Below are positions 1,986 to 30,739 of a stretch of 64,000 nucleotides of DNA, piece after piece (the first letter of the stretch is position 1; every line of letters begins with the position of its first letter). The notes under the pieces are model-generated. The model was given only the letters and a program-made list of their open reading frames with translations, did not search any database and had not been told where the DNA came from. A program made the translations under genes and the position numbers. The DNA lies in assembly GCF_057098645.1 (NCBI RefSeq), contig NZ_CM169472.1, one strand, 5' to 3'.

Positions 1986-2115
1986 CAGGCACAAAAAAAC
2001 CACCCGAAGGTGGTTTCACGACACTGCTTATTGCTTTGATTTTATTCTTATCTTTCCCATGGTACCCGGAGCGGGACTTGAACCCGCACAGCGCGAACGC
2101 CGAGGGATTTTAAAT
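1986..2115. repeat. Left direct repeat (attL) of island: 130-bp copy of leuZ 3' end (56 nt) plus downstream terminator region
   Basis: 130 bp with one mismatch to 30579..30708; contains a tRNA-Leu 3' fragment (2060..2115, minus) and a hairpin/T-run copy (about 1993..2017). Confidence 0.85.
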
Positions 2116-5708: not shown

Positions 5709-8700
5709 GATTTCATCAAACCAACGCGCAGTATCTGGATGATGGTTTCCACAATACGGTTAACCTGATTCATTCCGGCACCAATTTCCCGGCAGGCCGT
5801 AAACAGCAGTGGTAGCAGACTTGTCTTAACGACTTTCTCAATGTCCTGGGGGTTCAGGGAGTTTTCTGCCACCGCTTTGACGATAATGTTGTCCACGTCA
5901 AAAGCCAGCTTCGTCCACTTATCCTGCACTTGAACGTCTTTTACCACAAAAACCTCAGGTAGCTCTTTTTTAAATACACCGTAATATGCCTGAGCATGCT
6001 TGTTTACCGCCAAAGCATCCGGGATATCACTGAGCTTACGGGCTTTAACCTGTTCTTCAAACTCACGGAATAAGAGGTACTGCTTAAGTGGATGGTCGAA
6101 CAGTTTTTCAGCCTCTTCGATTGCCATACGCAGGAGTCTGGAAAAGGCCTCCTGAGCATACGGATCATCACGCAGCTCCTGCTCAATCATCTTCGTCACA
6201 CGGGTTTTAATGATGTCGGTTTCATTGCGGGTTTTATTGTTATCCCACTCTTCGGGTTTTTCGCTCTTGCCCATTTTACCGACTTCATACACGCCATCCG
6301 GTTCACGAACCTCAACGCCGGTAACATGCTTATCCAGCAATTTTTTCACCTGCTCAGCGTAGTCGTCATAATTGACCTGCTCTCCACTTACCTGCATCGC
6401 CCACTGGCGAAGGCTGGACATCTGTTTTACGGTTTCTTTATAGAGATTTCGGTCTTGTTCCGTAAAGCTCTTGTCGGTGAAGAAGGTAGCGGACTGCAGT
6501 GCCACTTTCAGGCATCCGGCAAAGGCCGTTAACGCCTCGAAGAAATCATCACGGGTTTTCTGATGGATATCGACCATCTCTCCGTCACGTTCTTCCATTT
6601 TAGGCACCAGTACTGCACGTAACTGCTCAGTATCATTTTTGTTTTTAACACCGGCAAATATGGCCCACAACTGGTTATACAGATGCGGCAGACGTTTATA
6701 TTCAGAGCTCATGGCGCTGTACAGCCCGTCAATATCCTTGATGTCGTATCCTCCCTGGGTTCGGGAGGCGAGATCCTGATATTTGCCGATAGTCGTGTCC
6801 AGTTCAGCCAGAATGCCGCGATAATCAATCAGCAGGCCAAACTTTTTCAGTGGATGCAGACGGTTTACCCTTGCAATCGCCTGGATAAGGTTGTGGGACT
6901 TAAGCGGCTTGTCGATATACAGCACGGTATTCTTCGGTTCATCAAATCCGGTGAGCAGTTTATCAACGACGATCAGTAATTTGAGCTTATCATCAGTATC
7001 GAAACGACTGATGATATTGCGGGTATACACAGACTCATCCTGCATGCCGACGTTATCTTTCCACCATTTCGTCACTTCCGGCAGTTTGCTTTCATCCACC
7101 TCAGTATTCCCTTCCCGGGTATCCGGCGGGCTGATAACTACAGCTGACTCAAACAACCCGGCTTCATCAAGATACTTTTTATATTTGATGGCGGAAATCT
7201 TGCTGTCGCAGGCAAGTTGGCCTTTCAGCCCCTCATCAATATTCTTCGAGAAGTGTGTGGCGATATCGAGTGCGATCAGCCGGATGCGGTCATCTGCACT
7301 GTAGACCTCACCTTTACGGGCATATTTACGTTTAAGGTCGGCTTTTTGCGCTTCGCTTAACCCATCGGTAATACGGTCAAACCAGGCATCTATTGCCCGA
7401 TCGTTAACCTCAAGGTCGGGAATACGTTCTTCATACAGCAAAGGTGTAACGGCTTTATCTTCTACCGCTCGCTGCATGGTATAAGCGTGGACAATCGGCC
7501 CGAATTTATTGGTGGTCTTATCTTCTTTTAGCAATGGCGTACCGGTGAATGCCACAAAGGCGGCGTTCGGCAGTGCCAGTTTCATTCGCACATGGTTCTC
7601 ACCCCCCTGGCTGCGGTGTCCTTCATCAATCAGAACGATGATGTCGGGGCTGGTATTGACGCATTCAGGCAATTTTGTCGCTGAGTTAAATTTCTGGATA
7701 AGGGTAAAGATTATACGTTCTTTACCAGAGCCAATCTGCTGTGCCAGCTTCTGACCTGAGGTCGCCATCGCTTTGGCCTTATCATCCTTCCCTGCCAGTT
7801 CGCCACCAGAGACAAAAGTGCCGCTGAGCTGCCCTTCAAGGTCCACGCGGTCCGTCACCACCACAATACGACACTGCTTCAGGCTGTCATGAAGGATCAG
7901 CGCCTTGCTGAGGAATACCATGGTGTAAGATTTACCTGACCTCGTGGTATGCCAGATCACCCCACCTTCCCTGCCCCCGTCTGGTCTGCGGGTACTGATG
8001 CGTTCCAGCAGTCTTTTTATCCCGAACACCTGCTGATAGCGGGCAACAATTTTTCCGGTTTTTTTATCAAACAGGGTGAAGAAGCGGGTCATCTCCAGCA
8101 GACGTTCCGGTGAAAGCAGACTGATGAGCAGCTTATCCTGCCCGCTGACTGCCAGTTCCCCCCCATCGATTAACTGTTGATACCATTTGAGATCGACTGA
8201 AGGACGATGATCAAACAACGCATGAATTTGTTCAGTCGATAACTGATGGTTGCGCAGCGCATACATCTGCGGATCGGTAATATCTTCTTCGCGCCATGCC
8301 GCCCAGAATTTCATTGGCGTATGGCATGTACCGTAGCGCCCGTCATGACCGTTAATCGAAAGTAATAACTGGCTGTAGACAAACAGCTGCGGGATTTCAT
8401 CGTTGAACTGGTTGCGGATACTCTGGGATATCCCCTCGTCAATGGTTGGCCCTTTCTTGCCATGACCAGCCGGGCTTTTCGCTTCAATAACAGCCAGCGG
8501 GATACCATTAACAAAGCAGACAATATCCGGTCTGCGGGTTTCAACACCGCCTGACCGCAATACCGTAAATTCTTCAGTAAAATGGAACTGGTTATTTTCC
8601 GGATGTTCCCAGTCGATCAGCGCAATGGTGGGGTTGACCTTCTTGCCATCGACAAATTCGGTGACGGCGATACCGTAGAGCAGATGGTTATACATCCGTT

Positions 8701-17279: not shown

Positions 17280-18126
17280 ATGTTCGAGAAAATGAAAAAC
17301 AATGTAACCCGTGTACCGGGGAATTTAACCATACTTAATCAATACCAAAAAGACATTGATCACCTGTCTAAATTATTTTCTGAACAGCTATTACTGGATC
17401 TAATGACGACTACCAACCCTAATCAAACATTGCAAATGAAACCTTCTGTAGATATTCTTCATGTACTATCTCCATCAGCATCCACTGCTAACCATATCAA
17501 TTTTTTTCAGCACGTCCCAGTGATCGAACTATGGTTAAAAAAGGAGTGCACTGCCTTTAATTCACTTGCTATTTATTTCTATGCACAGCAATCCCGTAAA
17601 AATGTCATTCCGAAAAAAAATCTGTAGACAACTGGACGTATTTATTAATACTGAACTTGCATCTGCGGTTAATGGCAATAGTAATTCTAAACCCCTTTTT
17701 CATTTTCTAAATAACTACCTTTATCATCCTAAAATGATTGCATTGATCATTTTATCTATGCTGCCTTATGAAGTCATTCGTAACGATGAATCACTGAGTG
17801 AGTTTAAAACACCATTAACCACACCCGATGAGTTTATTATCAAAGCATTTTGCGTTAAAGGTACGCAAAACACCACGGGACATAAAAAAGATATCGAACA
17901 ATTGCTTCGAAAAACATATATCTACATTGCATTACTTTTGAACCCTGAGTGGGTACCATCATCCAAGGATTTGATTTCCTTTTTATCAGGAGAGTCCACC
18001 GAGATAAGTGGTTCAATGAATTTCCAGTCAACGTCCAGTGGTCTGGGTGTTCAAACTAACAATATCACTCTTCTTAAGAATGAGGTTTACTTCGAAAAAA
18101 TAGCGAACAAGATCATGAAACTGTAG
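17280..18126 (+). pseudogene. Hypothetical AT-rich gene split by +1/-1 frame change at an A8 tract
   Basis: ORFs 17280..17627 and 17566..18126 overlap in different frames across the homopolymer AAAAAAAA at 17613..17620; removing one A fuses them into a ~282-aa ORF. Confidence 0.45.
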
Positions 18127-19400: not shown

Positions 19401-19440
19401 ACCAATGATCTGTGATTCGTGAAAGCAGTTCGCAGAAAGA

Positions 19441-19608
19441 TTGAATCTTTCTGCATCCACGGTTGCGTCAGATATTTCTCGCAATCCCGGAAAACTCCCG
19501 CCCTTCATCAGAATTGGGCGGGCTATACGATTCTCTCTTGACGATATTGTTGATTGGGAAAATGCACATCGTCAAAACAAACTTAAAGGTGATATAAATG
19601 GTTACTAA
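19441..19608 (+). CDS. Possible AlpA/Xis-like HTH excisionase-type small protein (start codon uncertain)
   Basis: Frame translation ...LSASTVASDISRNPGKLPPFIRIGRAIRFSLDDIVDWENA... resembles AlpA-family regulators; no ATG start, so a TTG/GTG start or a 5' truncation is implied; not in the ORF track (<60 aa). Confidence 0.3.
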   Translation: MNLSASTVASDISRNPGKLPPFIRIGRAIRFSLDDIVDWENAHRQNKLKGDINGY

Positions 19609-19786
19609 GAACACGGAAAATAACGCTAATAATGCACTGAACATTCTTCCCGAATCAGCAAGCACAGCTGTAGACAACGATGAAAAATATCTGTCCTTTG
19701 CATTAGTTCTCGCTATCACGATTATGGGCAACTGAACCGCCCCGGGAATCCTGGAGACTAAACTTCCTGAGAAAGAGGTAAACAGG

Positions 19787-20113
19787 ATGACTAAAAATAC
19801 TCGTTTTTCCCCTGAAGTCCGTCAACGGGCAGTCCGTATGGTTCTGGAAAGTCAGGGCGAATATGACTCACAATGGGCGACAATTTGTTCCATTGCTCCA
19901 AAGATTGGCTGTACGCCGGAGACTCTGCGTGTCTGGGTTCGCCAGCATGAGCGGGATACCGGGGGCGGTGATGGAGGGCTCACCACCGCTGAACGTCAGC
20001 GTCTGAAAGAGCTGGAGCGTGAAAATCGTGAACTGCGCCGCAGTAACGATATCCTTCGCCAGGCTTCCGCTTATTTTGCGAAGGCGGAGTTCGACCGCCT
20101 CTGGAAAAAATGA
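19787..20113 (+). CDS. IS3-family transposase OrfA (HTH)
   Basis: 108-aa [22 protein letters not shown]..., typical IS3-family OrfA with leucine-zipper-like C-terminus. Confidence 0.85.
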
Positions 20114-21000
20114 TGCCACTGCTGGATAAGCTGCGTGAGCAGTACGGGGTCGGACCGCTATGCAGCGAACTGCATATTGCCCCGTCAACGTATTACCACT
20201 GTCAGCAACAGCGACATCATCCGGATAAACGCAGTGCCCGTGCGCAGCGCGATGACTGGCTGAAGAAAGAGATACAGCGCGTATACGATGAAAATCACAA
20301 GGTATACGGTGTGCGTAAAGTCTGGCGTCAGTTGTTACGGGAAGGTATCAGAGTGGCCAGATGCACTGTGGCACGTCTCATGGCGGTTATGGGACTTGCC
20401 GGTGTTCTCCGGGGTAAAAAGGTCCGTACGACCATCAGCCGGAAAGCCGTTGCCGCAGGCGACCGCGTAAACCGTCAGTTCGTGGCAGAACGACCTGACC
20501 AGCTGTGGGTGGCTGATTTTACTTACGTCAGCACATGGCAGGGCTTCGTCTATGTGGCGTTCATCATTGATGTGTTTGCCGGATACATTGTGGGGTGGCG
20601 GGTCTCATCGTCCATGGAGACGACATTCGTGCTGGATGCACTGGAGCAGGCGTTATGGGCCCGTCGACCGTCCGGCACGGTCCATCACAGTGATAAAGGT
20701 TCTCAGTATGTATCGCTGGCCTACACACAGCGGCTTAAGGAAGCCGGATTACTGGCATCAACAGGAAGTACAGGCGACTCGTATGACAACGCGATGGCGG
20801 AGAGCATCAATGGTCTTTACAAAGCGGAGGTAATACACCGTAAGAGCTGGAAAAACCGTGCAGAAGTGGAACTGGCCACACTCACGTGGGTGGACTGGTA
20901 TAACAATCGACGATTGCTGGAAAGGCTGGGCCATACTCCTCCGGCAGAAGCAGAAAAAGCTTATTATGCTTCCATCGGAAACGATGATCTGGCAGCCTGA
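20110..21000 (+). CDS. IS3-family transposase OrfB (DDE integrase-like catalytic domain)
   Basis: 296-aa ORF with DDE motif region (...WVADFTYV...HHSDKGSQY...[10 protein letters not shown]...). Confidence 0.85.
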
Positions 21001-21662
21001 GTTCACAGATAAAACACTCTCCAGGAAACCCGGGGCGGTTCAAACTTAGTAAAGCTCATCGGCACAGATGGCTTCATACTTTATACCTACACCCTGCAGG
21101 ACACGGCTACTGCTCGTGCTGTTTTTAATGAATTAGCCAGGCGTCTCAAAAATTTCAATCGTCAGGAGGAGGTCTACACCACCGATTCCCTCACCTTTCG
21201 AATGAAATACATTTACGGTGTTACCCTGTTCGAACATGATAGTAAATCTATCCTTAACCTTTTTGATAAGAAGGGTTATCCAGTATTGAGTGAATCAGGA
21301 GAACCCGGTTCTCTTGATGATATGTATCTTGACATTCAAGCCCGATTACATGGCGGCTACGCCTCAAAAAAGTTTCTTCATTTACATGAACATTGTCTGT
21401 TATCTGCACACGTTACCCCGTCTGTGGAAAAGACGCAACGTGGTATCCTGATTAAAGCAGGCAGGAAACTCGTTTCCTTTATCTATGCAGATAATGAATC
21501 TCGCAAAAATGATATTTTCAAAGCTGTAGTAGACGTCATTAAATCCTGATTCATTATGCCGGGTGCGTATTCCGCTCTATTCGATCACGGATTGGCATCG
21601 AAGTCCGATCAGCGATTCGCATCCATTCGATCAACCGGGAACTTAACTTTTTCTACCGCTTT

Positions 21663-22418
21663 TTAACGCGTTTTTTCGCTGCTTTCCACTACCGGGGGAT
21701 TTTTCCTCAGTGACTCTCCCTGAAGGACCACTCGGTGTGAGTTATGTACCAGTCTGTCCAGGATGGCATCTGCTGTTGTTGGGTTCTCCATCAGACCATG
21801 CCATTTATCTACCGGGAACTGGCTTACCACTATCGTGCTGCTTTGTCCGTAACGATCCTCTATGAGCTCCAGAAGGTCATTACACTGGGCGTTACTTAAC
21901 TGTTCCAGCCCCAGATCGTCCAGGATTAGAACCTGTATTTTTTGCAACTGTTTCAGATATTTCAGCCAGCTGCCATCAACACGTCCCTGAGCCAGTTGTT
22001 CCAGTAATCGCCCGGTTCTACAGTACCGGACGCTGTGTTTCTGTCGACATGCCTGTTCGCCCAGCGCATTGGCTATCCAGCTCTTGCCACATCCTGTCGG
22101 ACCGGTTATCAGCAGGTTTTTCCTGTGGGTTATGTAGTGGCCGTTCAGCAGTTCTCTCATCTGTTCAGCCCGCAGACCTCTTGAGGCCGGATAGCGCAGC
22201 CCTTCCGGTGTTGCCTGGTATTTCAGGCCGGCATTTTTTCTCAACCGTGCCACACGGCTGTTTTCCCTGCTCAGAAGCTCGTCATCAACCAGCAGCGTCA
22301 GCCTTTCCTCGAACGACAGTTCGTCGTAGGTCTGAGGCGTTTCCCGCTGCCGTATCAGGCTCCCGGCCATCGCCGGGAGTTTCAGTTGGGTCAGTTTGTT
22401 TAACAGGTTATCACTCAT
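21663..22418 (-). CDS. istB: IS21-family helper ATPase IstB
   Basis: Walker A GPTGCGKS and Walker B-like ILDDLG motifs; start set at MSDNLLNKL within the longer ORF 21663..22661. Confidence 0.8.
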   Translation of the reverse strand: MSDNLLNKLTQLKLPAMAGSLIRQRETPQTYDELSFEERLTLLVDDELLSRENSRVARLRKNAGLKYQATPEGLRYPASRGLRAEQMRELLNGHYITHRKNLLITGPTGCGKSWIANALGEQACRQKHSVRYCRTGRLLEQLAQGRVDGSWLKYLKQLQKIQVLILDDLGLEQLSNAQCNDLLELIEDRYGQSSTIVVSQFPVDKWHGLMENPTTADAILDRLVHNSHRVVLQGESLRKNPPVVESSEKTR

Positions 22419-22434
22419 ACTGTTGTTCCTTCTG

Positions 22435-23970
22435 TCAGTGGTAGTAGCCCGGACCACGCAGGTTTTCATGCTCTGAAGCATATGCCGGATGTTGTTCGCC
22501 CTGGCGGGATAATGGAAGCTCCAGGTTCTCCCGATGGTGACGCAGCAGATTGTCGATAAAGCGTCTGTCAGGGGCGTTATAGTGCAGGGCAACGTAACAG
22601 GCCTTTTCCAGCCGTTCCGGGCCGTATTTTTTCTGAAGTGCCAGCAGCCCCAGAACTGCACGATAAGCCAGTTCCGGATGGGGTTTTGCCTTCAGCATGG
22701 ATTCAACCACCCGGCCTGTGGACGGGCCCGTACGTTTTCCCTGCTCGATCAGGCGTTCCGGTGTCCATGTCCCGTGCTGCCGGTGGCGCTCTGGCATGTG
22801 AAGCGGATTGGTTGTGTGTTTATATTCATGTGTGCTGCGCGGATGTTGCGCCACACACTGCCCCTTGTGCCAGAGCTGTACCACCGACTGCCCCGCCTTC
22901 AGTGACAGACGCTGACCGACCAGTTCGTGTGGAACGGAGTACCAGTGACGGGCATATTCAACGTGGTAGTCAGGGCCAACCTTCACAGCTTTGTATTCCG
23001 TGTATTCATAAGGTGCCAGAGGCAGCGGAGAGAGTGCTGGCGCATCCAGTATGCGGAAGCGTTCTGCACGGGTTTGATTGCCGTACCCCTTCATTGGCCG
23101 GTTATTCATGTCTGTCAGTAACTCCCTAAGGCGCGCATTCAGCGCCCTGAGCGTGTGGAAGGTTTCATTACGGATGCGGGCAAGAAGCCATCGTTCAACG
23201 ATGAGGACGCCGTTTTCTGCTTTTGGTTTATCTTTAGGTTTGCGTGGTCGGGCCGGGATGATAACCGTGCCATAGTGCTCAGCCAGTGCCTGATAACTGT
23301 CGTTGATGACAGGCTCATATCGATCGGCCTTTTTCACTGCGCTTCTGAGGTTATCGGGGATGAGCAGCTTCGGTACGCCGCCCAGGAAGGTCAGGCAACG
23401 GCTGTGGGCATTTAACCATGACATCATGTCCTGACCTTCGCACGCTTCAACGTAGGTATAGTTGGACGCCCCCATTACGGCCACGAAGATTGCCACGCGG
23501 CGTATCTCACCGGTGTCCGGATTAATAACAGGAACCGTAGGACCACAGAAGTCGATAAAAAGCTTTTCGCCGGCACGATGCTCCTGGCGCATGGAGAGAC
23601 GTCGCGTTTTTTTCCACTCCCGGTAGCAACGGCAGAAGTGCGAGTATCCCATCGCTTTGTTACCCGCCTGTGCCTTGTATTCCATCCACAACAGTTGCCG
23701 CGTCACACCTGGTTTTCTCATTTCCGTATCGAAGTACAACATGTCAGGCATTACAAGCTCTGATGCAAAGGTGTCTTTGGGCGGAAAAATGAGTTTCTCC
23801 AGCGTGTCATGGGATATATCAGCAGGTAATGGCCATGACAGAGAAGAGGCTTTGAAGCGGGCAAGAACCTCAAAAACGGTTGAGGCGCTGATGTGTAACG
23901 TCAGTCCGATACAACGGTTAGTCAGCTTCTTGTCGAACTTGAGCTGAAGGATCTTAAAACAGGTTTCCAT
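22435..23970 (-). CDS. istA: IS21-family transposase IstA
   Basis: Large ORF 22435..24081 with N-terminal HTH and DDE catalytic region; start uncertain (internal Met chosen); overlaps istB start, as typical for IS21. Confidence 0.75.
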   Translation of the reverse strand: METCFKILQLKFDKKLTNRCIGLTLHISASTVFEVLARFKASSLSWPLPADISHDTLEKLIFPPKDTFASELVMPDMLYFDTEMRKPGVTRQLLWMEYKAQAGNKAMGYSHFCRCYREWKKTRRLSMRQEHRAGEKLFIDFCGPTVPVINPDTGEIRRVAIFVAVMGASNYTYVEACEGQDMMSWLNAHSRCLTFLGGVPKLLIPDNLRSAVKKADRYEPVINDSYQALAEHYGTVIIPARPRKPKDKPKAENGVLIVERWLLARIRNETFHTLRALNARLRELLTDMNNRPMKGYGNQTRAERFRILDAPALSPLPLAPYEYTEYKAVKVGPDYHVEYARHWYSVPHELVGQRLSLKAGQSVVQLWHKGQCVAQHPRSTHEYKHTTNPLHMPERHRQHGTWTPERLIEQGKRTGPSTGRVVESMLKAKPHPELAYRAVLGLLALQKKYGPERLEKACYVALHYNAPDRRFIDNLLRHHRENLELPLSRQGEQHPAYASEHENLRGPGYYH

Positions 23971-24594
23971 AGTGCTCCTGGATTTTCTCTTTCTGGACAT
24001 TGACGTCTCCACTGGTTTAAACACGGCAATGGAGACTGTGGTGAAAAGAGTTAATTCCCGGAGTGACTGGCAGGATGCCAATCAATGATCGGAAGCATGC
24101 CAAATCGTGATCGATTGTGATGCCAAACTGTGATCGGAGATGGATGCCAAATCATGATCGATTCGAATGCCAAACTGCGATCGATTCAGATGCCATTTTG
24201 CAGCCGGGGGGGACGAACTCCCGGCATTTTTTCGGAGTTAACTATGAGCAATAATTTGCAGGACATCCTCGCTGCCGCATCGGGGTATCAGTCCGTGACT
24301 TCAGAGCCAGCGCTCAATCTTAAAAGACCTAAAACGCTTGATGATTATCCTGTGATACCACCTGCATCAAAAAAAGTATCTGTTATTTCAAGTGACCTGA
24401 CACTCCATATCGGTTTTGATACCGAATATGTTTTCAATCCTGAAACACAACAGAATGATATTCTGTCATATCAGAGTTATGTTGTCTTACCCGATAATAC
24501 AGGTATATCGAACATTATCTATCCACCTGACTCACAGAAAAAATCCCGGCTGTCTTTTAAGAACTTTCTCTGTCAAACGATTATGGATTTGCCC

Positions 24595-25500
24595 CTATAT
24601 TTCCAGACATCTGTTATCACTTAACCCATTACAAGCCCGCTGCCGCAGATATTCCCGTGGCGAGCGATAACCCAGCGCACTATGCGGATGCCATTCGTTA
24701 TAATGCTCGAACGCCTCTGCAAGGTTCTTTGCTGCCGTTAACCCGTCTGGTTTGGGCATGATACTGATGTAGTCACGCTTTATCGTTTTCACGAAGCTCT
24801 CTGCTATTCCGTTACTCTCCGGACTCCGCACCGCCGTGTTCTTCGGTTCAAGTCCCAACATCCGGGCGAACTGGCGTGTTTCATTAGCCCGGTAGCATGA
24901 ACCATTATCCGTCAGCCACTCCACTGGAGACGACGGAAGATCGTTGCCGAAGCGGCGTTCCACCGCTCCCAGCATGACGTCCTGTACTGTTTCACTGTTG
25001 AAGCCGCCGGTAGTCACCGCCCAGTGCAGTGCCTCACGATCACAGCAGTCCAGCGCGAACGTGACACGCAGTCTCTCTCCGTTATCACAGCAGAACTCGA
25101 ACCCGTCAGAGCACCATCGCTGATTGCTTTCTTTCACGGCCACTCTGCCTGTATGTGCCCGTTTCGATGGCGGTACAGCAGGTTTTCGCTCAAGCAACAG
25201 CGCATTCTGGCGCATGATCCGGTAAACACGTTTGGCATTGATCGCAGGCATACCATCAAGTTCTGCCTGTCTGCGAAGCAGCGCCCATACCCGACGATAA
25301 CCATACGTGGGCAGCTCTCCGATAACATGGTGTATACGGAGAAGCACATCCGTATCATCAGTGTGACGACTGCGGCGGCCATCCATCCAGTCATCGGTTC
25401 GTCTGAGAATGACGTGCAACTGCGCACGCGACACCCGGAGACAACGGCTGACTAAGCTTACTCCCCATCCCCGGGCAATAAGGGCGCGTGCGCTATCCAC
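24595..25500 (-). CDS. insD: IS2 transposase OrfB (InsD)
   Basis: 301-aa [24 protein letters not shown]... with DDE integrase core; overlaps insC as expected for a frameshift-fusion transposase. Confidence 0.85.
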
Positions 25501-25823
25501 TTTTTTGCCCGTCCATATTCAACGGCTTCTTTGAGGAGTTCATTTTCCATCGTTTTCTTGCCGAGCAGGCGCTGGAGTTCTTTAATCTGCTTCATGGCGG
25601 CAGCAAGTTCAGAGGCAGGAACAACCTGTTCTCCGGCGGCCACAGCAGTAAGACTTCCTTCCTGGTATTGCTTACGCCAGAGAAATAACTGGCTGGCTGC
25701 TACACCATGTTGCCGGGCAACGAGGGAGACCGTCATCCCCGGTTCAAAGCTCTGCTGAACAATTGCGATCTTTTCCTGTGTGGTACGCCGTCTGCGTTTC
25801 TCCGGCCCTAAGACATCAATCAT
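25458..25823 (-). CDS. insC: IS2 transposase OrfA (InsC)
   Basis: Starts [26 protein letters not shown]..., the InsC sequence as recalled; taken from the internal Met of ORF 25458..25868. Confidence 0.85.
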
Positions 25824-27974
25824 CTGTTCTCCAATGACTAGTCTAAAAACTAGTATTAAGACTATCACTTATTTAAGTGATACTGGTTGTCTGGAGATTC
25901 AGGGGGCCAGTCTAGATTACACCGCTTCTTGAAACGGGTGTGATTACAAAATGGCCCGGTATTATTAATATATATGCGCATTTCATTCGTGCGGATATCA
26001 CCTCCTTTGCCAATTTCTGGTCAGACTACAAAATTCTTCTGAAAGGAATACGCGGTACTGTCAGCAGCTTCAAAAATCGTTACGGTATCGATTTTGATGA
26101 ACAGCAGGAACGTCGCGTAAAGACTGAACAGATAATGTTTGACAAACGAACTTCCCCTCCGCGTTGCAGTAACGTAGCTTTCATCGATACACTGCTTATC
26201 ACTCCCGGGGGTATGGGTCTGGCTGAATGTGGTGAATTACTGGGTCTTCCCAAACTGACCATTCCTGCACCTTATTCCATAACCAATATGCGTGAATATC
26301 TTCTGGGCGACAGAGCAGGGTTTGAAGCCTATGCTCTGCGGGATGCCGAGATTGCGGTTCGTTATGCTTTACAGGTTCGCAATTTTTGCGCCCGGGAGCT
26401 GATGATTGATCGTGTCCCCGCCACCATCGGGGCGATGGCAGTTTCACGGTTCACCAAAACACTTAAAGAAAACAATATGTCTCCTGAAGTCTGCCTTGGG
26501 ACACACATTAAAACCCGTGAACTCTGGCTCACGGAGAAACAGGCATTCCGGACGATTAAAAACCCCGCCAGTGTTCCTTCAAGAGAGCTGTTTGAAACGT
26601 TCCCGATCAACTGTTACCACGGCGGACGCAATGAGTGTTTTATGATGGGGGTTACACCGTCTGATCACTGGTATGACTACGATCTGGCTGGAGCGTATAC
26701 CACCGGGCTATTAGATATCCTCATACCCGATTACGGAAACATCCGCCTCAGTAAAAATCCGGACGATTACTGTGGGCATGTAATGGGATTTGCGTTTGTC
26801 ACATTTCAGTTCCCGGAATCAGTTCCCTATCCCAGCCTGCCGGTTCGGACCGATCAATATGGGTTATTCTTTCCATTAAGTGGCGAATCATGGGCAACGG
26901 CACCTGAAATCGAACTTGCTCTGTCGCTCGGGGCAGAGATGACGATCCATAATGGGATCATCGTCCCCTGGATCTGTGACACCTCCCCACATAACAGCGA
27001 ATCAACATCGGTGTTTCTTCCCTTTGTTCAACAGGTCCGTGAGAACCGTAATCGCCATATTAAAGGTTCTCTGGAGGAGAAATTCTGGAAAGAAATTGGC
27101 AACTCGCTTTATGGCAAACTTGCTCAGGGCCTTCGCGCCAAAACCGCCTTTGATACTGCCCGTGGATTAAACAGATCCCTCCCACCATCATCGGTTACTC
27201 AGCCATTCTTTGCTGCGCATGTGACGGGATTTATCCGCGCCGTTGTCGGGGAACTCATGAATGCTTTGCCTTCTGATTCATCGGTTGTCAGCGTCACAAC
27301 CGATGGCTTTTTGACAAATTGCCCACTTAACAAGATAAACATGAGCGGTCCACTGTCTTCCCGCTTCCAGTCGCTGTGCGATATTGTTGATCCGGGTTCA
27401 TCAATGTTGACATGTAAGCATGAGGTCAGCCAGCTTATCGCCATGAAAACCCGGGGGCAGTTAACCTATAGAGCTATTCAGGGAAAACCTGTTGTTCATG
27501 CCAGGGCTGGCGTCAAACCTCCTGCCGATATTCCACGCAGTGACTATAACGACTATATGGTAGATCTTTACCTTAATCGTTTACCCGGTCAGACGTTATC
27601 CCGAAGTACGTTGATATCAACGCGTGAGATGTGGCTGTCGGAAAGCGATCTGGTATCCCGGGAACAGGATATCCGTCTTAATCTGGAATTCGATTTCAAA
27701 CGCCAGCCCGTACAGCCCGCCATGAATGAAGGGCATTTACTGATGTCTTCCCGCCCATGGGATAATATGGAAGAGGCTCTGCAGCAACGCTCTCTTTTCG
27801 ACGACTGGCGGCAAACGCATACACTGAAGACCCTGGCTGACTGGGATGACTGGTGTGATTTTCTCTATTGCCGGACGGTGTTTTCTGATATGAAACTAAA
27901 AGTCGGAAGCAAACGTAGTGATGATATTTTAGTCAGACTATTTCTCCGGGCGCTGACTCAGTGCCAATGGGGGC

Positions 27975-28523
27975 TTATGCTGAAAGATAAAAAAAGTTAT
28001 TCCTGTAAAGAGGTTGCTGAATGGCTGACGTCAGAAGGCTATTCAGTAACATGTCAAAAAGCACCTGCTGGATCTCCCGGGCCCGAAGGTCGCAGTAACG
28101 TATCTTCCCCAGACGAGGTTCAATGTATTGCGTGAAACGCTGAACATCCTTATCCCAGGACTTTTTATGGCGTTTGATGAACGGAACATAGGTCTGGTGA
28201 AAAAACTCACTAAGTGTTGGCATCGCACGATAATTATCGCGTTCTGCTTTAGGGTCATTTCCCAGTGCAATCGCCTCCTTGTGACGACGAGCTATCTGAC
28301 GGGCTGTCCCCACATCGATTTCAGGGAATCTGCCAATACTGATACTTTTTTTGGTACCGTGGAATGTGTAGCGCAGGAGGAAACGTTTGTTACCCGTTCG
28401 ACCTGAGAGACATTTGAGGCCTATGACCTCGGTATCTGATACCTCAAGCTCTGTAGATCGGGTATCTGTGTTTGCCGGAAGGGCTTTGATGGATGAATTG
28501 GTGAATCGGAAGGATTTTTGCAT
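27975..28523 (-). pseudogene. Truncated P4-type integrase (N-terminal arm-binding domain only)
   Basis: ORF 27975..28553; MQKSFRFTNSSIKALP...GTARQIARRHKEAIALGNDP resembles the DUF4102 arm-binding N-terminus of P4-family integrases; no catalytic domain; 3' part overlaps the piPolB 3' end on the opposite strand. Confidence 0.5.
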
Positions 28524-28709
28524 ATTTATCCTCATGTATCTGATTGATATCATGAAAATAATATATATCTGAAGGTGTTTTTATTACGGGGCAGGATTGA
28601 AGAATGGAAAAGCTATTAGACGCGTACAAACGGATATTGCAGGAAGTTAACGCCCAGTCATTTAACCTGAATGAGGATAAATACTCAGGCGTCTTTTTAC
28701 CCGTGCCGT

Positions 28710-29766
28710 GGCTTTGTTGAATAAATCGAACTTTTGCTGAGTTGAAGGATCAGATCACGCATCTTCCCGACAACGCAGACCGTTCCGTGGCAAAGCAAAA
28801 GTTCAAAATCACCAACTGGCCCACCTACAATAAAGCCCTCATCAACCGTGGCTCCATAACTTTCTGGCTGGATGATGAAGCTATTCAGGCCTGGTATGAG
28901 TCAGCAACACCTTCTTCACGAGGCAGACCTCAGCGCTATTCTGACCTTGCCATCACGACTGTGCTGGTCATTAAACGCGTATTCAGGCTGACCCTGCGCG
29001 CTGCGCAGGGCTTTATTGATTCCATTTTTTCTCTGATGAACGTTCCGCTACGCTGCCCGGATTACAGCTGTGTCAGCAGGCGGGCAAAGTCGGTTAATGT
29101 CAGTTTCAAAACGCCCACCCGGGGTGAAATCGCACATCTGGTGATTGATTCCACCGGGCTGAAGGTCTTCGGTGAAGGCGAGTGGAAAGTCAAAAAGCAT
29201 GGCCAGGAACGCCGCCGTATCTGGCGTAAGCTGCATCTCGCCGTTGACAGTAAAACACATGAAATCATCTGTGCAGACCTGTCGCTGAACAACGTTACGG
29301 ACTCAGAGGCCTTCCCCGGGTTAATCCGGCAAACCCACCGGAAAATCAGGTCAGCCGCCGCCGATGGCGCTTACGATACCCGGCTATGTCACGATGAACT
29401 GCGGCGTAAGAAAATCAGCGCGCTTATCCCTCCCCGAAAAGGTGCGGGCTACTGGCCCGGTGAATATGCAGACCGTAACCGTGCAGTGGCTAATCAGCGA
29501 ATGACCGGGAGTAATGCGCGGTGGAAATGGACAACAGATTACAACCGTCGCTCGATAGCGGAAACGGCGATGTACCGGGTAAAACAGCTGTTCGGGGGTT
29601 CACTGACGCTGCGTGACTACGATGGTCAGGTTGCGGAGGCTATGGCCCTGGTACGAGCGCTGAACAAAATGACGAAAGCAGGTATGCCTGAAAGCGTGCG
29701 TATTGCCTGAAAACACAACCCGCTACGGGGGAGACTTACCCGAAATCTGATTTATTCAACAAAGCC
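28710..29766 (+). mobile_element. IS5-family (IS903-group) insertion sequence, copy 2
   Basis: Same ends as copy 1 (GGCTTTGTTGAATAAATC inverted repeats), inverted relative to copy 1; flanked by 9-bp target duplication CCGTGCCGT (28701..28709 and 29767..29775). Confidence 0.85.
28742..29710 (+). CDS. IS903-group (IS5 family) transposase
   Basis: 322-aa ORF identical in sequence to the one at 12245..13213. Confidence 0.88.
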   Translation: MKDQITHLPDNADRSVAKQKFKITNWPTYNKALINRGSITFWLDDEAIQAWYESATPSSRGRPQRYSDLAITTVLVIKRVFRLTLRAAQGFIDSIFSLMNVPLRCPDYSCVSRRAKSVNVSFKTPTRGEIAHLVIDSTGLKVFGEGEWKVKKHGQERRRIWRKLHLAVDSKTHEIICADLSLNNVTDSEAFPGLIRQTHRKIRSAAADGAYDTRLCHDELRRKKISALIPPRKGAGYWPGEYADRNRAVANQRMTGSNARWKWTTDYNRRSIAETAMYRVKQLFGGSLTLRDYDGQVAEAMALVRALNKMTKAGMPESVRIA

Positions 29767-30578: not shown

Positions 30579-30708
30579 CAGGCACAAAAAAACCACCCGG
30601 AGGTGGTTTCACGACACTGCTTATTGCTTTGATTTTATTCTTATCTTTCCCATGGTACCCGGAGCGGGACTTGAACCCGCACAGCGCGAACGCCGAGGGA
30701 TTTTAAAT
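30579..30708. repeat. Right direct repeat (attR): leuZ 3' end plus downstream terminator region
   Basis: 130 bp matching 1986..2115 with one mismatch; overlaps the intact tRNA-Leu 3' 56 nt. Confidence 0.85.
30586..30612 (-). terminator. Rho-independent terminator of the glyW-cysT-leuZ tRNA operon
   Basis: Minus-strand hairpin aaccacc-tccg-ggtggtt followed by a T7 run immediately 3' of leuZ. Confidence 0.7.
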
Positions 30709-30739
30709 CCCTTGTGTCTACCGATTCCACCATCCGGGC
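30653..30739 (-). tRNA. leuZ: tRNA-Leu (anticodon UAA)
   Basis: 87-nt sequence GCCCGGATGGTGGAATCGGTAG...CTCCGGGTACCA on the minus strand; anticodon loop TTTAAAA; long variable arm; encoded CCA. Confidence 0.9.

Follow-up and report, generated by a model that had tools for sequence, protein, structure and literature searches.

Introduction

In Escherichia coli, pipolins are integrative elements that encode the primer-independent DNA polymerase piPolB and reside at tRNA-Leu (Redrejo-Rodriguez 2017, PMC5695915; Flament-Simon 2020, PMC7385651). Their core has been summarized as 'IntP2 usually followed by an excisionase', plus orphan proteins (Mateo-Caceres 2024, PMC11551731), and the hypothetical or orphan proteins of this core have obtained no assignment from HHpred or eggNOG (Table S3 of PMC7385651; PMC11551731). 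A monophyletic subgroup has also been delimited, whose members have insertion sequence (IS) elements close to IntP2 and have lost DNA between piPolB and IntSXT (PMC11551731). Here we analyze a stretch of 64,000 nucleotides from contig NZ_CM169472.1 (RefSeq assembly GCF_057098645.1), hereafter the window, which contains a pipolin of this truncated subgroup. One of its core genes, an open reading frame (ORF) of 212 codons that we call ORF212, located between the excisionase-like gene and the piPolB gene, is split by a copy of IS629. ORF212 corresponds to one of the published 'hypothetical' or 'orphan' core proteins.

Results

IS629 splits a gene of the pipolin core

An earlier reading of the window, made from its letters and referred to below as the sequence-only reading, had described an IS629-like insertion, bounded by a 3-bp AAC duplication, whose removal would restore an ORF of about 207 codons. 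The element and the duplication are exactly where they had been placed (Table 1). The imperfect terminal inverted repeats of this 1310-bp copy read TGAACCGCCCCGGG... and ...CCCGGGGCGGTTCA, and its ends have the form 5'-TG...CA-3' with AAC on each side, as in IS3-family elements, which combine TG...CA ends with a duplication of 3-4 bp. Pfam recognizes HTH_Tnp_1 in orfA (E=6e-13) and rve in orfB (E=5e-28), and an ALIL pseudoknot spans the overlap of the two, which is the two-ORF, -1 frameshift organization of the IS3 family. Over its 1310 bp the copy is 100% identical to multicopy IS3-family elements of E. coli O145:H28 genomes, related copies of which carry the RefSeq label 'IS3-like element IS629 family', and this near-identity assigns it to IS629.

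The uninterrupted target site was also found. When the element and one AAC are removed, the restored sequence aligns in one piece, with 99.9% identity, to O145:H28 strains RM12761, RM13516 and others, and the Prokaryotic Genome Annotation Pipeline (PGAP) has annotated a 212-aa hypothetical protein (WP_022581683.1) at this site in RM12761. IS629 has transposed into ORF212 at codon 45/46 (nt 135) and duplicated AAC. Joining the two flanking fragments regains the uninterrupted frame MVTKNTENN...DVIKS that had been predicted; its length, however, is 212 aa and not about 207. The IS629/ORF212 junction does not occur in any of 5426 complete E. coli genomes. The insertion is in itself a routine IS event within an already described mobile element.

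ORF212 is a gene of enterobacterial pipolins

Intact 212-aa orthologs are annotated in E. coli H10407 and in RM12761. Among the 5426 complete E. coli genomes, 280 contain ORF212 (full-length in 273) and 295 contain piPolB; every copy of ORF212 is chromosomal, and about 95% of the piPolB carriers have it. Neither 72,556 plasmids nor 50,697 phage records yielded a homolog. The homology search that the sequence-only reading had proposed for the reconstructed protein retrieved a small set of relatives: phmmer, run exhaustively against 1.84 billion representative proteins, gave 18 matches, and a profile search of 5.8 billion proteins gave 67 clusters, all of them unnamed and without Pfam domains. 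Relatives with a named source come from E. coli, Citrobacter, Klebsiella aerogenes, Enterobacter, Leclercia, Lelliottia and Hafnia, all of them Enterobacterales, and a scan of 100,044 species genomes added Intestinirhabdus and Buttiauxella as hosts. Concerning more distant pipolins (Vibrio, Aeromonas), the matches listed in a piPolB protein search included only 99%-identical E. coli-type proteins, and a scan of viral contigs returned one locus, also of E. coli type.

The gene order 376-aa orphan-integrase-Exc-ORF212-piPolB is found in H10407 and in 10 out of 10 loci from outside E. coli, as far as the contigs reach. These loci include Citrobacter, Intestinirhabdus, Enterobacter and Buttiauxella, and the synteny is retained where the identity of ORF212 drops to 29-36%. 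The sequence-only reading had pointed to the order integrase, Xis-like gene, gene of no recognizable family, polymerase as reminiscent of a replication or regulation module; this is indeed a conserved module, the polymerase being the primer-independent PolB.

That the protein belongs to no recognizable family, as first proposed, still holds for the 212-aa form, which has no match in Pfam, PHROGs, NCBIfam or PADLOC, enzyme families included, and which matches 0 families of the PADLOC defence models at E<=1. A profile search of PDB sequences returned noise (E 0.57 and 2). We also considered whether ORF212 could be a terminal protein or a detached polymerase extension, which seems unlikely: ORF212 has no similarity to the N- and C-terminal extensions of the plasmid-encoded piPolBs from Staphylococcus and Fusobacterium, which are longer (hhalign probability <1%). 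Because of its distribution, its family size, its synteny, the selection acting on it and its confident predicted fold (the last two are described below), we regard it as nearly certain that ORF212 is a bona fide protein-coding gene restricted to enterobacterial pipolins.

ORF212 evolves faster than its neighbours

We compared three divergent ORF212 subfamilies, the E. coli/Citrobacter type and those of loci L003 and L005, one of which has a 200-aa form (among the labelled loci, L001 is H10407, L006-L008 are Citrobacter, L013 is O145:H28 12E115 and L014 is isolate GPT21-003). Between H10407 and the Citrobacter loci L006-L008, identity is 97-99% for piPolB, 96-99% for the integrase (Int) and 100% for Exc, against 84-90% for ORF212. 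Between H10407 and L005 the corresponding figures are 71%, 79% and 56%, against 30% for ORF212. Pairwise ratios of nonsynonymous to synonymous substitution rates (dN/dS) are 0.27-0.48 for ORF212, about 0.15 for the integrase, 0.15-0.23 for piPolB and 0 for Exc. ORF212 is therefore the fastest-evolving gene of the core block, with a dN/dS 2-3 times that of the flanking genes. Since this value stays below 0.5, its divergence reflects relaxed or locally diversifying selection and not pseudogenization.

The window is not the only place where ORF212 has been hit. O145:H28 12E115 (L013 6001-7737) carries IS629 in opposite orientation at nt 481 of the gene, and RM9873-C1 likewise matches ORF212 nt 1-481; in isolate GPT21-003 (L014 3001-4326), IS1A is found near the 3' end. 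ORF212 has thus been disrupted independently by IS elements in several strains, and its loss is evidently tolerated by the host.

The predicted structure of ORF212 has three tandem modules

An AlphaFold2 model built from 9 input sequences reached a mean predicted local distance difference test (pLDDT) of 87.6 and a predicted TM score (pTM) of 0.82. Residues 1-20 are disordered and N/T-rich, and are not present in the 200-aa subfamily. The remainder forms 3 tandem modules, each of 5 short strands and a helix (residues 22-82, 88-149 and 155-211), among which hhalign detects no sequence repeat (probability 3-5%). Invariant positions are V25, V37, R97, G103, G122, S127, E128, L146, C162, G178 and F190, and the nearly invariant ones include Y102, K174 and K182. 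The isoelectric point (pI) is 4.9-7 in most members, while the third module is basic (pI 9.7).

Foldseek searches with the model placed LytTR proteins at the top in the PDB (E 3e-3 to 9e-3) and phage 'DNA binding regulator' or 'LytTr' proteins at the top among the viral models of BFVD (E 1e-3 and weaker), with a probability of 0.89-1.0 for these top matches; the similarity of fold is nevertheless weak. The model suggests that the fold of ORF212 is a small, beta-rich, binding-type scaffold with no close known structural relative.

The periodicity of the secondary structure, together with weak matches to Pfam Hus1 (checkpoint clamp), prompted the idea of a sliding clamp. Hus1 matches occur in 18 of the 29 members, cover 57 residues, score 12-16 bits against a cut-off of 27, and belong to one closely related subfamily. 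A Hus1/PCNA-type identity was rejected: these matches are sub-threshold and confined to one subfamily, and were treated as noise, and clamps do not superpose on the model (Foldseek probability 0.02-0.11, TM about 0.12).

The excisionase-like gene has lost its start

The sequence-only reading had noticed, upstream of ORF212 and in another frame, an AlpA/Xis-like helix-turn-helix (HTH) coding stretch without an ATG, and had suggested an alignment that would define its true start. The alignment with H10407 and RM12761 accounts for this observation. H10407 has a 66-aa 'helix-turn-helix transcriptional regulator' (WP_000281555.1) between the integrase and ORF212, residues 6-66 of which are encoded by window positions 19423-19605, and 143 bp of H10407 (L001 12074-12216) are absent after window position 19422. 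Through this deletion, which is shared by RM12761 and other O145:H28 strains, exc has lost its promoter region, its ribosome-binding site and codons 1-5 (MYLTI), together with most of the int-exc spacer, and because of the loss of these codons the HTH frame is open but has no start. The remnant is not called by PGAP in RM12761. There is no obvious microhomology at the deletion junction.

HTH_17 scores 22.1 bits on the window remnant, against a cut-off of 27. Intact H10407 Exc matches PHROG_66 'excisionase and transcriptional regulator' (E=4e-7) and TIGR01764 'excisionase family' (24.1 bits against 28.8); an HTH_17 match is recorded for the L003 ortholog, and some copies have been named 'AlpA family transcriptional regulator' by PGAP. 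Judging by these matches and by its position, the HTH gene is most probably the excisionase of published pipolins.

Two elements of the intact int-exc spacer (L001 12052-12201) are conserved. The motif ATGA(G/T)CTGTGA is found in all three subfamilies, and a palindrome, CTGCAGGGCCCTGCA or CTGCAGGGCCCGGCAG, is shared by the E. coli type and the L005/L009/L011 type. L003 and L010 lack this palindrome, and in the window it falls inside the deleted 143 bp.

ORF212 overlaps exc in two subfamilies and is separated from piPolB by a hairpin

In E. coli, ORF212 begins 11 nt before exc ends (ATGGTTACTAA), with AGGTGA 6 nt upstream of its ATG. The overlap is of 17 nt in the L003 subfamily, and in the L005 subfamily a gap of 31 nt is found. 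Downstream, a spacer of 46-63 nt separates ORF212 from piPolB. Each of the three subfamilies has a GC-rich hairpin in this spacer, although its stem sequence differs between them, and the ribosome-binding site of piPolB lies directly 3' of it. A T-run after the hairpin, which gives it the appearance of an intrinsic terminator, is found only in the E. coli/Citrobacter type. In view of the overlap with exc and of the hairpin before piPolB, ORF212 looks to be part of a small exc-ORF212 operon from which entry into piPolB is gated. The hairpin may be a read-through gate or a recognition site for a protein or for the polymerase.

The pipolin of the window is heavily decayed

The window island lies between yecA and a tRNA-Leu/Cys/Gly cluster and carries the features by which a pipolin is recognized: a piPolB gene (disrupted here), a tyrosine integrase, tRNA-Leu and 130-bp att-like repeats. 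From one repeat to the other the pipolin measures about 28.7 kb. Its core runs from the 376-aa orphan through the P2-type integrase, the 66-aa excisionase-like HTH gene, ORF212 and the GC-rich hairpin to piPolB, and the coordinates of these and other features are collected in Table 1. In its left arm, the pipolin shares with H10407 and RM12761 the type I restriction-modification, DUF262 and M48 genes.

Table 1. Features of the pipolin and of its insertions. Positions are those of the window unless a locus label is given.
Feature	Position	Strand	Remarks
Left att-like direct repeat, 130 bp	1986..2115		99.2% identical to 30579-30708; adjoins yecA as in RM12761
Remnant of 376-aa orphan gene, upstream of integrase	17280-18126		285-bp deletion leaves ORFs of 115 and 186 aa (compare L001 9647-10777)
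P2-type tyrosine integrase, 376 aa	18270..19400	+	Phage_integrase E=5e-22; 99.2% to H10407 WP_001121920.1
Junction of 143-bp deletion	19422..19423		int-exc spacer with palindrome and exc codons 1-5 lost; alignment with H10407 and RM12761, blastn map
5'-truncated excisionase-like HTH gene (residues 6-66 of 66), probably a pseudogene	19423..19608	+	tblastn 96.7% to H10407 Exc
ORF212 5' fragment (codons 1-45)	19598..19732	+	ATG overlaps exc end (ATGGTTACTAA)
Target duplication AAC, left copy	19730..19732		
IS629 (IS3 family)	19733..21042	+	1310 bp; orfA 19787-20113, orfB 20110-21000; Pfam HTH_Tnp_1, rve
ALIL pseudoknot (programmed -1 frameshift signal of IS629)	20068..20184	+	Rfam RF01497, 120 bits
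Target duplication AAC, right copy	21043..21045		
ORF212 3' fragment (codons 46-212 plus stop)	21046..21549	+	tblastn 97.6% to H10407 WP_000256735.1
ORF212-piPolB spacer/hairpin	21550-21563 plus 24203-24243		L001 13031-13080; L003 8637-8699; L005 8604-8662; L009-L012 about 7568-7630
IS21-family element (ISSso4-like by RefSeq name)	21564..24202	-	2639 bp; istA 22435-24081, istB 21663-22661; Pfam IstB_IS21, rve, Mu-transpos_C_2
piPolB 5' fragment (about codons 1-113)	24244..24583	+	
IS2-like IS3-family element (name presumed)	24584..25914	-	1331 bp, 5-bp duplication; ORFs 24595-25500, 25458-25868; splits piPolB at about codon 113; blastn map
piPolB remainder, to codon 824	25915..28050	+	Followed by 5.8-kb deletion
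Further IS near right end of pipolin	28705-29765		322-aa transposase, DDE_Tnp_1_5 and DDE_Tnp_1; apparent 5-bp duplication
Right att-like direct repeat, 130 bp	30579..30708		Overlaps 3' part of tRNA-Leu (30653-30739, minus strand)

The piPolB fragments of the window are 92-99% identical to the 866-aa protein of H10407, and the sources name this protein 'Primer-independent DNA polymerase PolB'. The first fragment ends at an element which we take to be IS2-like, from its length and duplication size, which agree with those of IS2. In RM12761, piPolB is instead interrupted at about codon 93 by an IS3-family element with the same transposase protein as the 12E115 insertion; since the two piPolB insertions differ in element and in site, they are independent. 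The second fragment is cut at codon 824 and fused to the remnant of an integrase Arm domain, as a consequence of a 5.8-kb deletion (compare L001 15552-21359) in which the WYL, DUF726 and DUF2787 genes and most of a second integrase, of IntSXT type, have been lost. The same deletion is found in RM12761. The window pipolin belongs to the monophyletic truncated subgroup described in PMC11551731.

Two further lesions complete the picture. The GC-rich hairpin between ORF212 and piPolB is interrupted by the IS21-family element, which is flanked by a duplication of about 6 bp (GCCGGG) and whose junction with the spacer occurs in none of the 5426 complete E. coli genomes. The 376-aa orphan, which has no Pfam match and is syntenic in every locus long enough (29-93% identity), is broken here in the same way as in RM12761. 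With exc truncated, ORF212 split, an IS21-family element before piPolB, and piPolB itself split and C-terminally truncated, the module is dead in this genome: the 143-bp deletion, IS629, the IS21-family element, the IS2-like element and the truncation of piPolB together keep it from working.

Discussion

A possible role for ORF212

Taken as a whole, the explanation that we favour, namely that a pipolin core gene was split by IS629 and that its product would have a binding role, appears reasonably probable. Its mechanistic part, that ORF212 is a binding or adaptor-type accessory factor, is tentative and should be taken as possible rather than established. In this proposal ORF212 would be transcribed together with the excisionase gene, and in two of the three subfamilies translationally coupled to it as well, giving a product that is predicted to be soluble and neutral to acidic, with three beta-sheet-plus-helix modules and no recognizable catalytic motif. 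The protein would bind DNA or RNA at the control sites of the element, or else the Exc, Int or piPolB proteins, and would serve as an accessory factor when the element excises and the polymerase is switched on. A binding role seems the most likely one because of the three-module fold and the lack of a catalytic motif.

Several observations weigh against this proposal. ORF212 has no sequence link to any DNA-binding family, and the LytTR Pfam profile in particular has no match in any of the 29 members even at E<=5. The pI of most members is untypical of a sequence-specific DNA binder. The hairpin and T-run before piPolB speak against a simple co-transcription of ORF212 with the polymerase. ORF212 also diverges far faster than its neighbours, which is not obviously to be expected of a tightly co-adapted replication factor. 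A model of a tandem homodimer joined by a (GGGGS)6 linker, admittedly a crude method, had a pTM of 0.55 against 0.82 for the monomer and gave no confident interface. Finally, the disruption of ORF212 by other IS elements in several strains indicates that it is dispensable for the host. Our confidence in the mechanism is limited by the acidic pI, by fold scores that are marginal, by the hairpin before piPolB and by the rapid divergence.

A more specific form of the proposal, which we consider unlikely, is that ORF212 is a specificity or accessory factor of pipolin replication, recruiting or licensing piPolB on the excised element, at the hairpin or at the att junction. If this were true, the rapid divergence of ORF212 would represent co-evolution with element-specific sites, and each lineage would have its own replication specificity.

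Alternative roles

A dedicated accessory of piPolB replication, acting in origin recognition or loading, in processivity or in the manner of a clamp, or serving as a protein primer comparable to terminal proteins, would account for the position of ORF212 immediately upstream of piPolB in every locus examined, as well as for its co-occurrence with piPolB in E. coli carriers and its absence from the plasmid and phage collections. In phi29 and PRD1 the terminal protein gene is directly upstream of the polymerase gene. A basic third module in an otherwise acidic protein and the weak Hus1 matches would also fit a role of this kind. However, these Hus1 matches are sub-threshold and come from a single subfamily, and clamps score poorly against the model; a terminator-like hairpin separates ORF212 from piPolB, and ORF212 evolves far faster than the polymerase that it would assist. 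Nothing like ORF212 forms part of the plasmid piPolBs of Staphylococcus and Fusobacterium, and piPolB requires neither primer nor terminal protein in vitro (PMC5695915). We therefore consider a dedicated replication accessory improbable.

The Foldseek matches raise the alternative that ORF212 is a LytTR-like regulator of the exc-ORF212 operon, of read-through into piPolB, or of both, which would bind the int-exc palindrome or the hairpin before piPolB. The conservation of the palindrome in two subfamilies and of the hairpin in three would provide such a regulator with sites. Yet the E-values are marginal, the sequence carries no LytTR signal, the pI is acidic, and the palindrome is lacking in L003 and L010; moreover, these sites could just as plausibly be bound by the HTH protein encoded next to ORF212. 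A regulator of this type has, in our estimate, a low probability.

Its rate of change suggests a third alternative, in which ORF212 is a fast-evolving conflict cargo gene that serves in defence, anti-defence or exclusion, or encodes a toxin paired with the upstream HTH protein. ORF212 does outpace the flanking genes in dN/dS, and a small HTH gene that overlaps a downstream ORF resembles, as we infer, a toxin-antitoxin layout. Pipolins are described as defence islands, and their defence genes are exchanged (PMC11551731). Unlike these, ORF212 was not found on the plasmids and phages searched, and it occupies the invariant core and not an exchangeable cargo module. In addition, it has no PADLOC match, its dN/dS below 0.5 indicates no overall positive selection, and O145:H28 strains keep an intact ORF212 beside a truncated HTH gene, which would be unexpected for a toxin unless it were unexpressed. 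This alternative seems very unlikely.

The remaining alternative, that the restored ORF is a chance open frame lacking homologs and coding signal, draws on the lack of a named family, and its probability is negligible: homologs that keep length and position extend to 29% identity, the synteny is conserved, selection is purifying, and the predicted fold is confident and repeat-structured.

Comparison with known systems

IS629, this type of pipolin and the HTH/excisionase gene are already known, and the locus is no new kind of system. What is new, in a minor way, is that IS629 has inserted at this site, that the start-less HTH frame is explained by the 143-bp deletion, and that the ORF212 family is described in terms of its distribution, synteny, fold, coupling to exc, adjoining hairpin and fast evolution. 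IS629 is one of several IS elements riddling a described mobile element in an IS-rich genome that resembles those of Shiga toxin-producing E. coli (STEC-like). The orphan family that ORF212 represents is very small, with about 67 clusters. ORF212 is found between exc and piPolB at every locus examined, and together with the adjoining hairpin it offers concrete targets for studying how pipolins excise, replicate and control their polymerase in vivo.

With respect to structural comparisons, ORF212 shares no sequence similarity with the LytTR domain (AgrA/ComE type; PDB 3d6w, 4cbv), and it consists of three modules each ended by a long helix and is acidic instead of basic. Its similarity to the PH-like superfold (PH/PTB/FERM-F3, TFIIH p62, FACT double-PH) is weak, with no evidence of homology: the module has 5 strands and not 7, measures about 62 aa, and occurs three times in tandem in the setting of a bacterial mobile element. 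With the terminal proteins of protein-primed PolBs, the sole resemblance is the position upstream of the polymerase gene.

The neighbouring gene resembles the AlpA/excisionase directionality factors (MerR-like HTH_17) in being a 66-aa gene after a tyrosine integrase with matches to HTH_17, PHROG_66 and TIGR01764. It differs from them in that the E. coli protein scores just under the curated cut-offs, and in that the window copy has lost its first 5 codons, its ribosome-binding site and its upstream region. The IS629 copy agrees with known IS629 in length, orfA/orfB, ALIL, TG...CA ends and 3-bp duplication, the insertion site alone being new. Finally, the element as a whole shares with published Enterobacterales pipolins a piPolB 98-99% identical to that of H10407, a P2 integrase followed by an excisionase, the tRNA-Leu site and the 130-bp repeats, and differs from them in that the window copy is more decayed than any found in the 5426 complete E. 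coli genomes.

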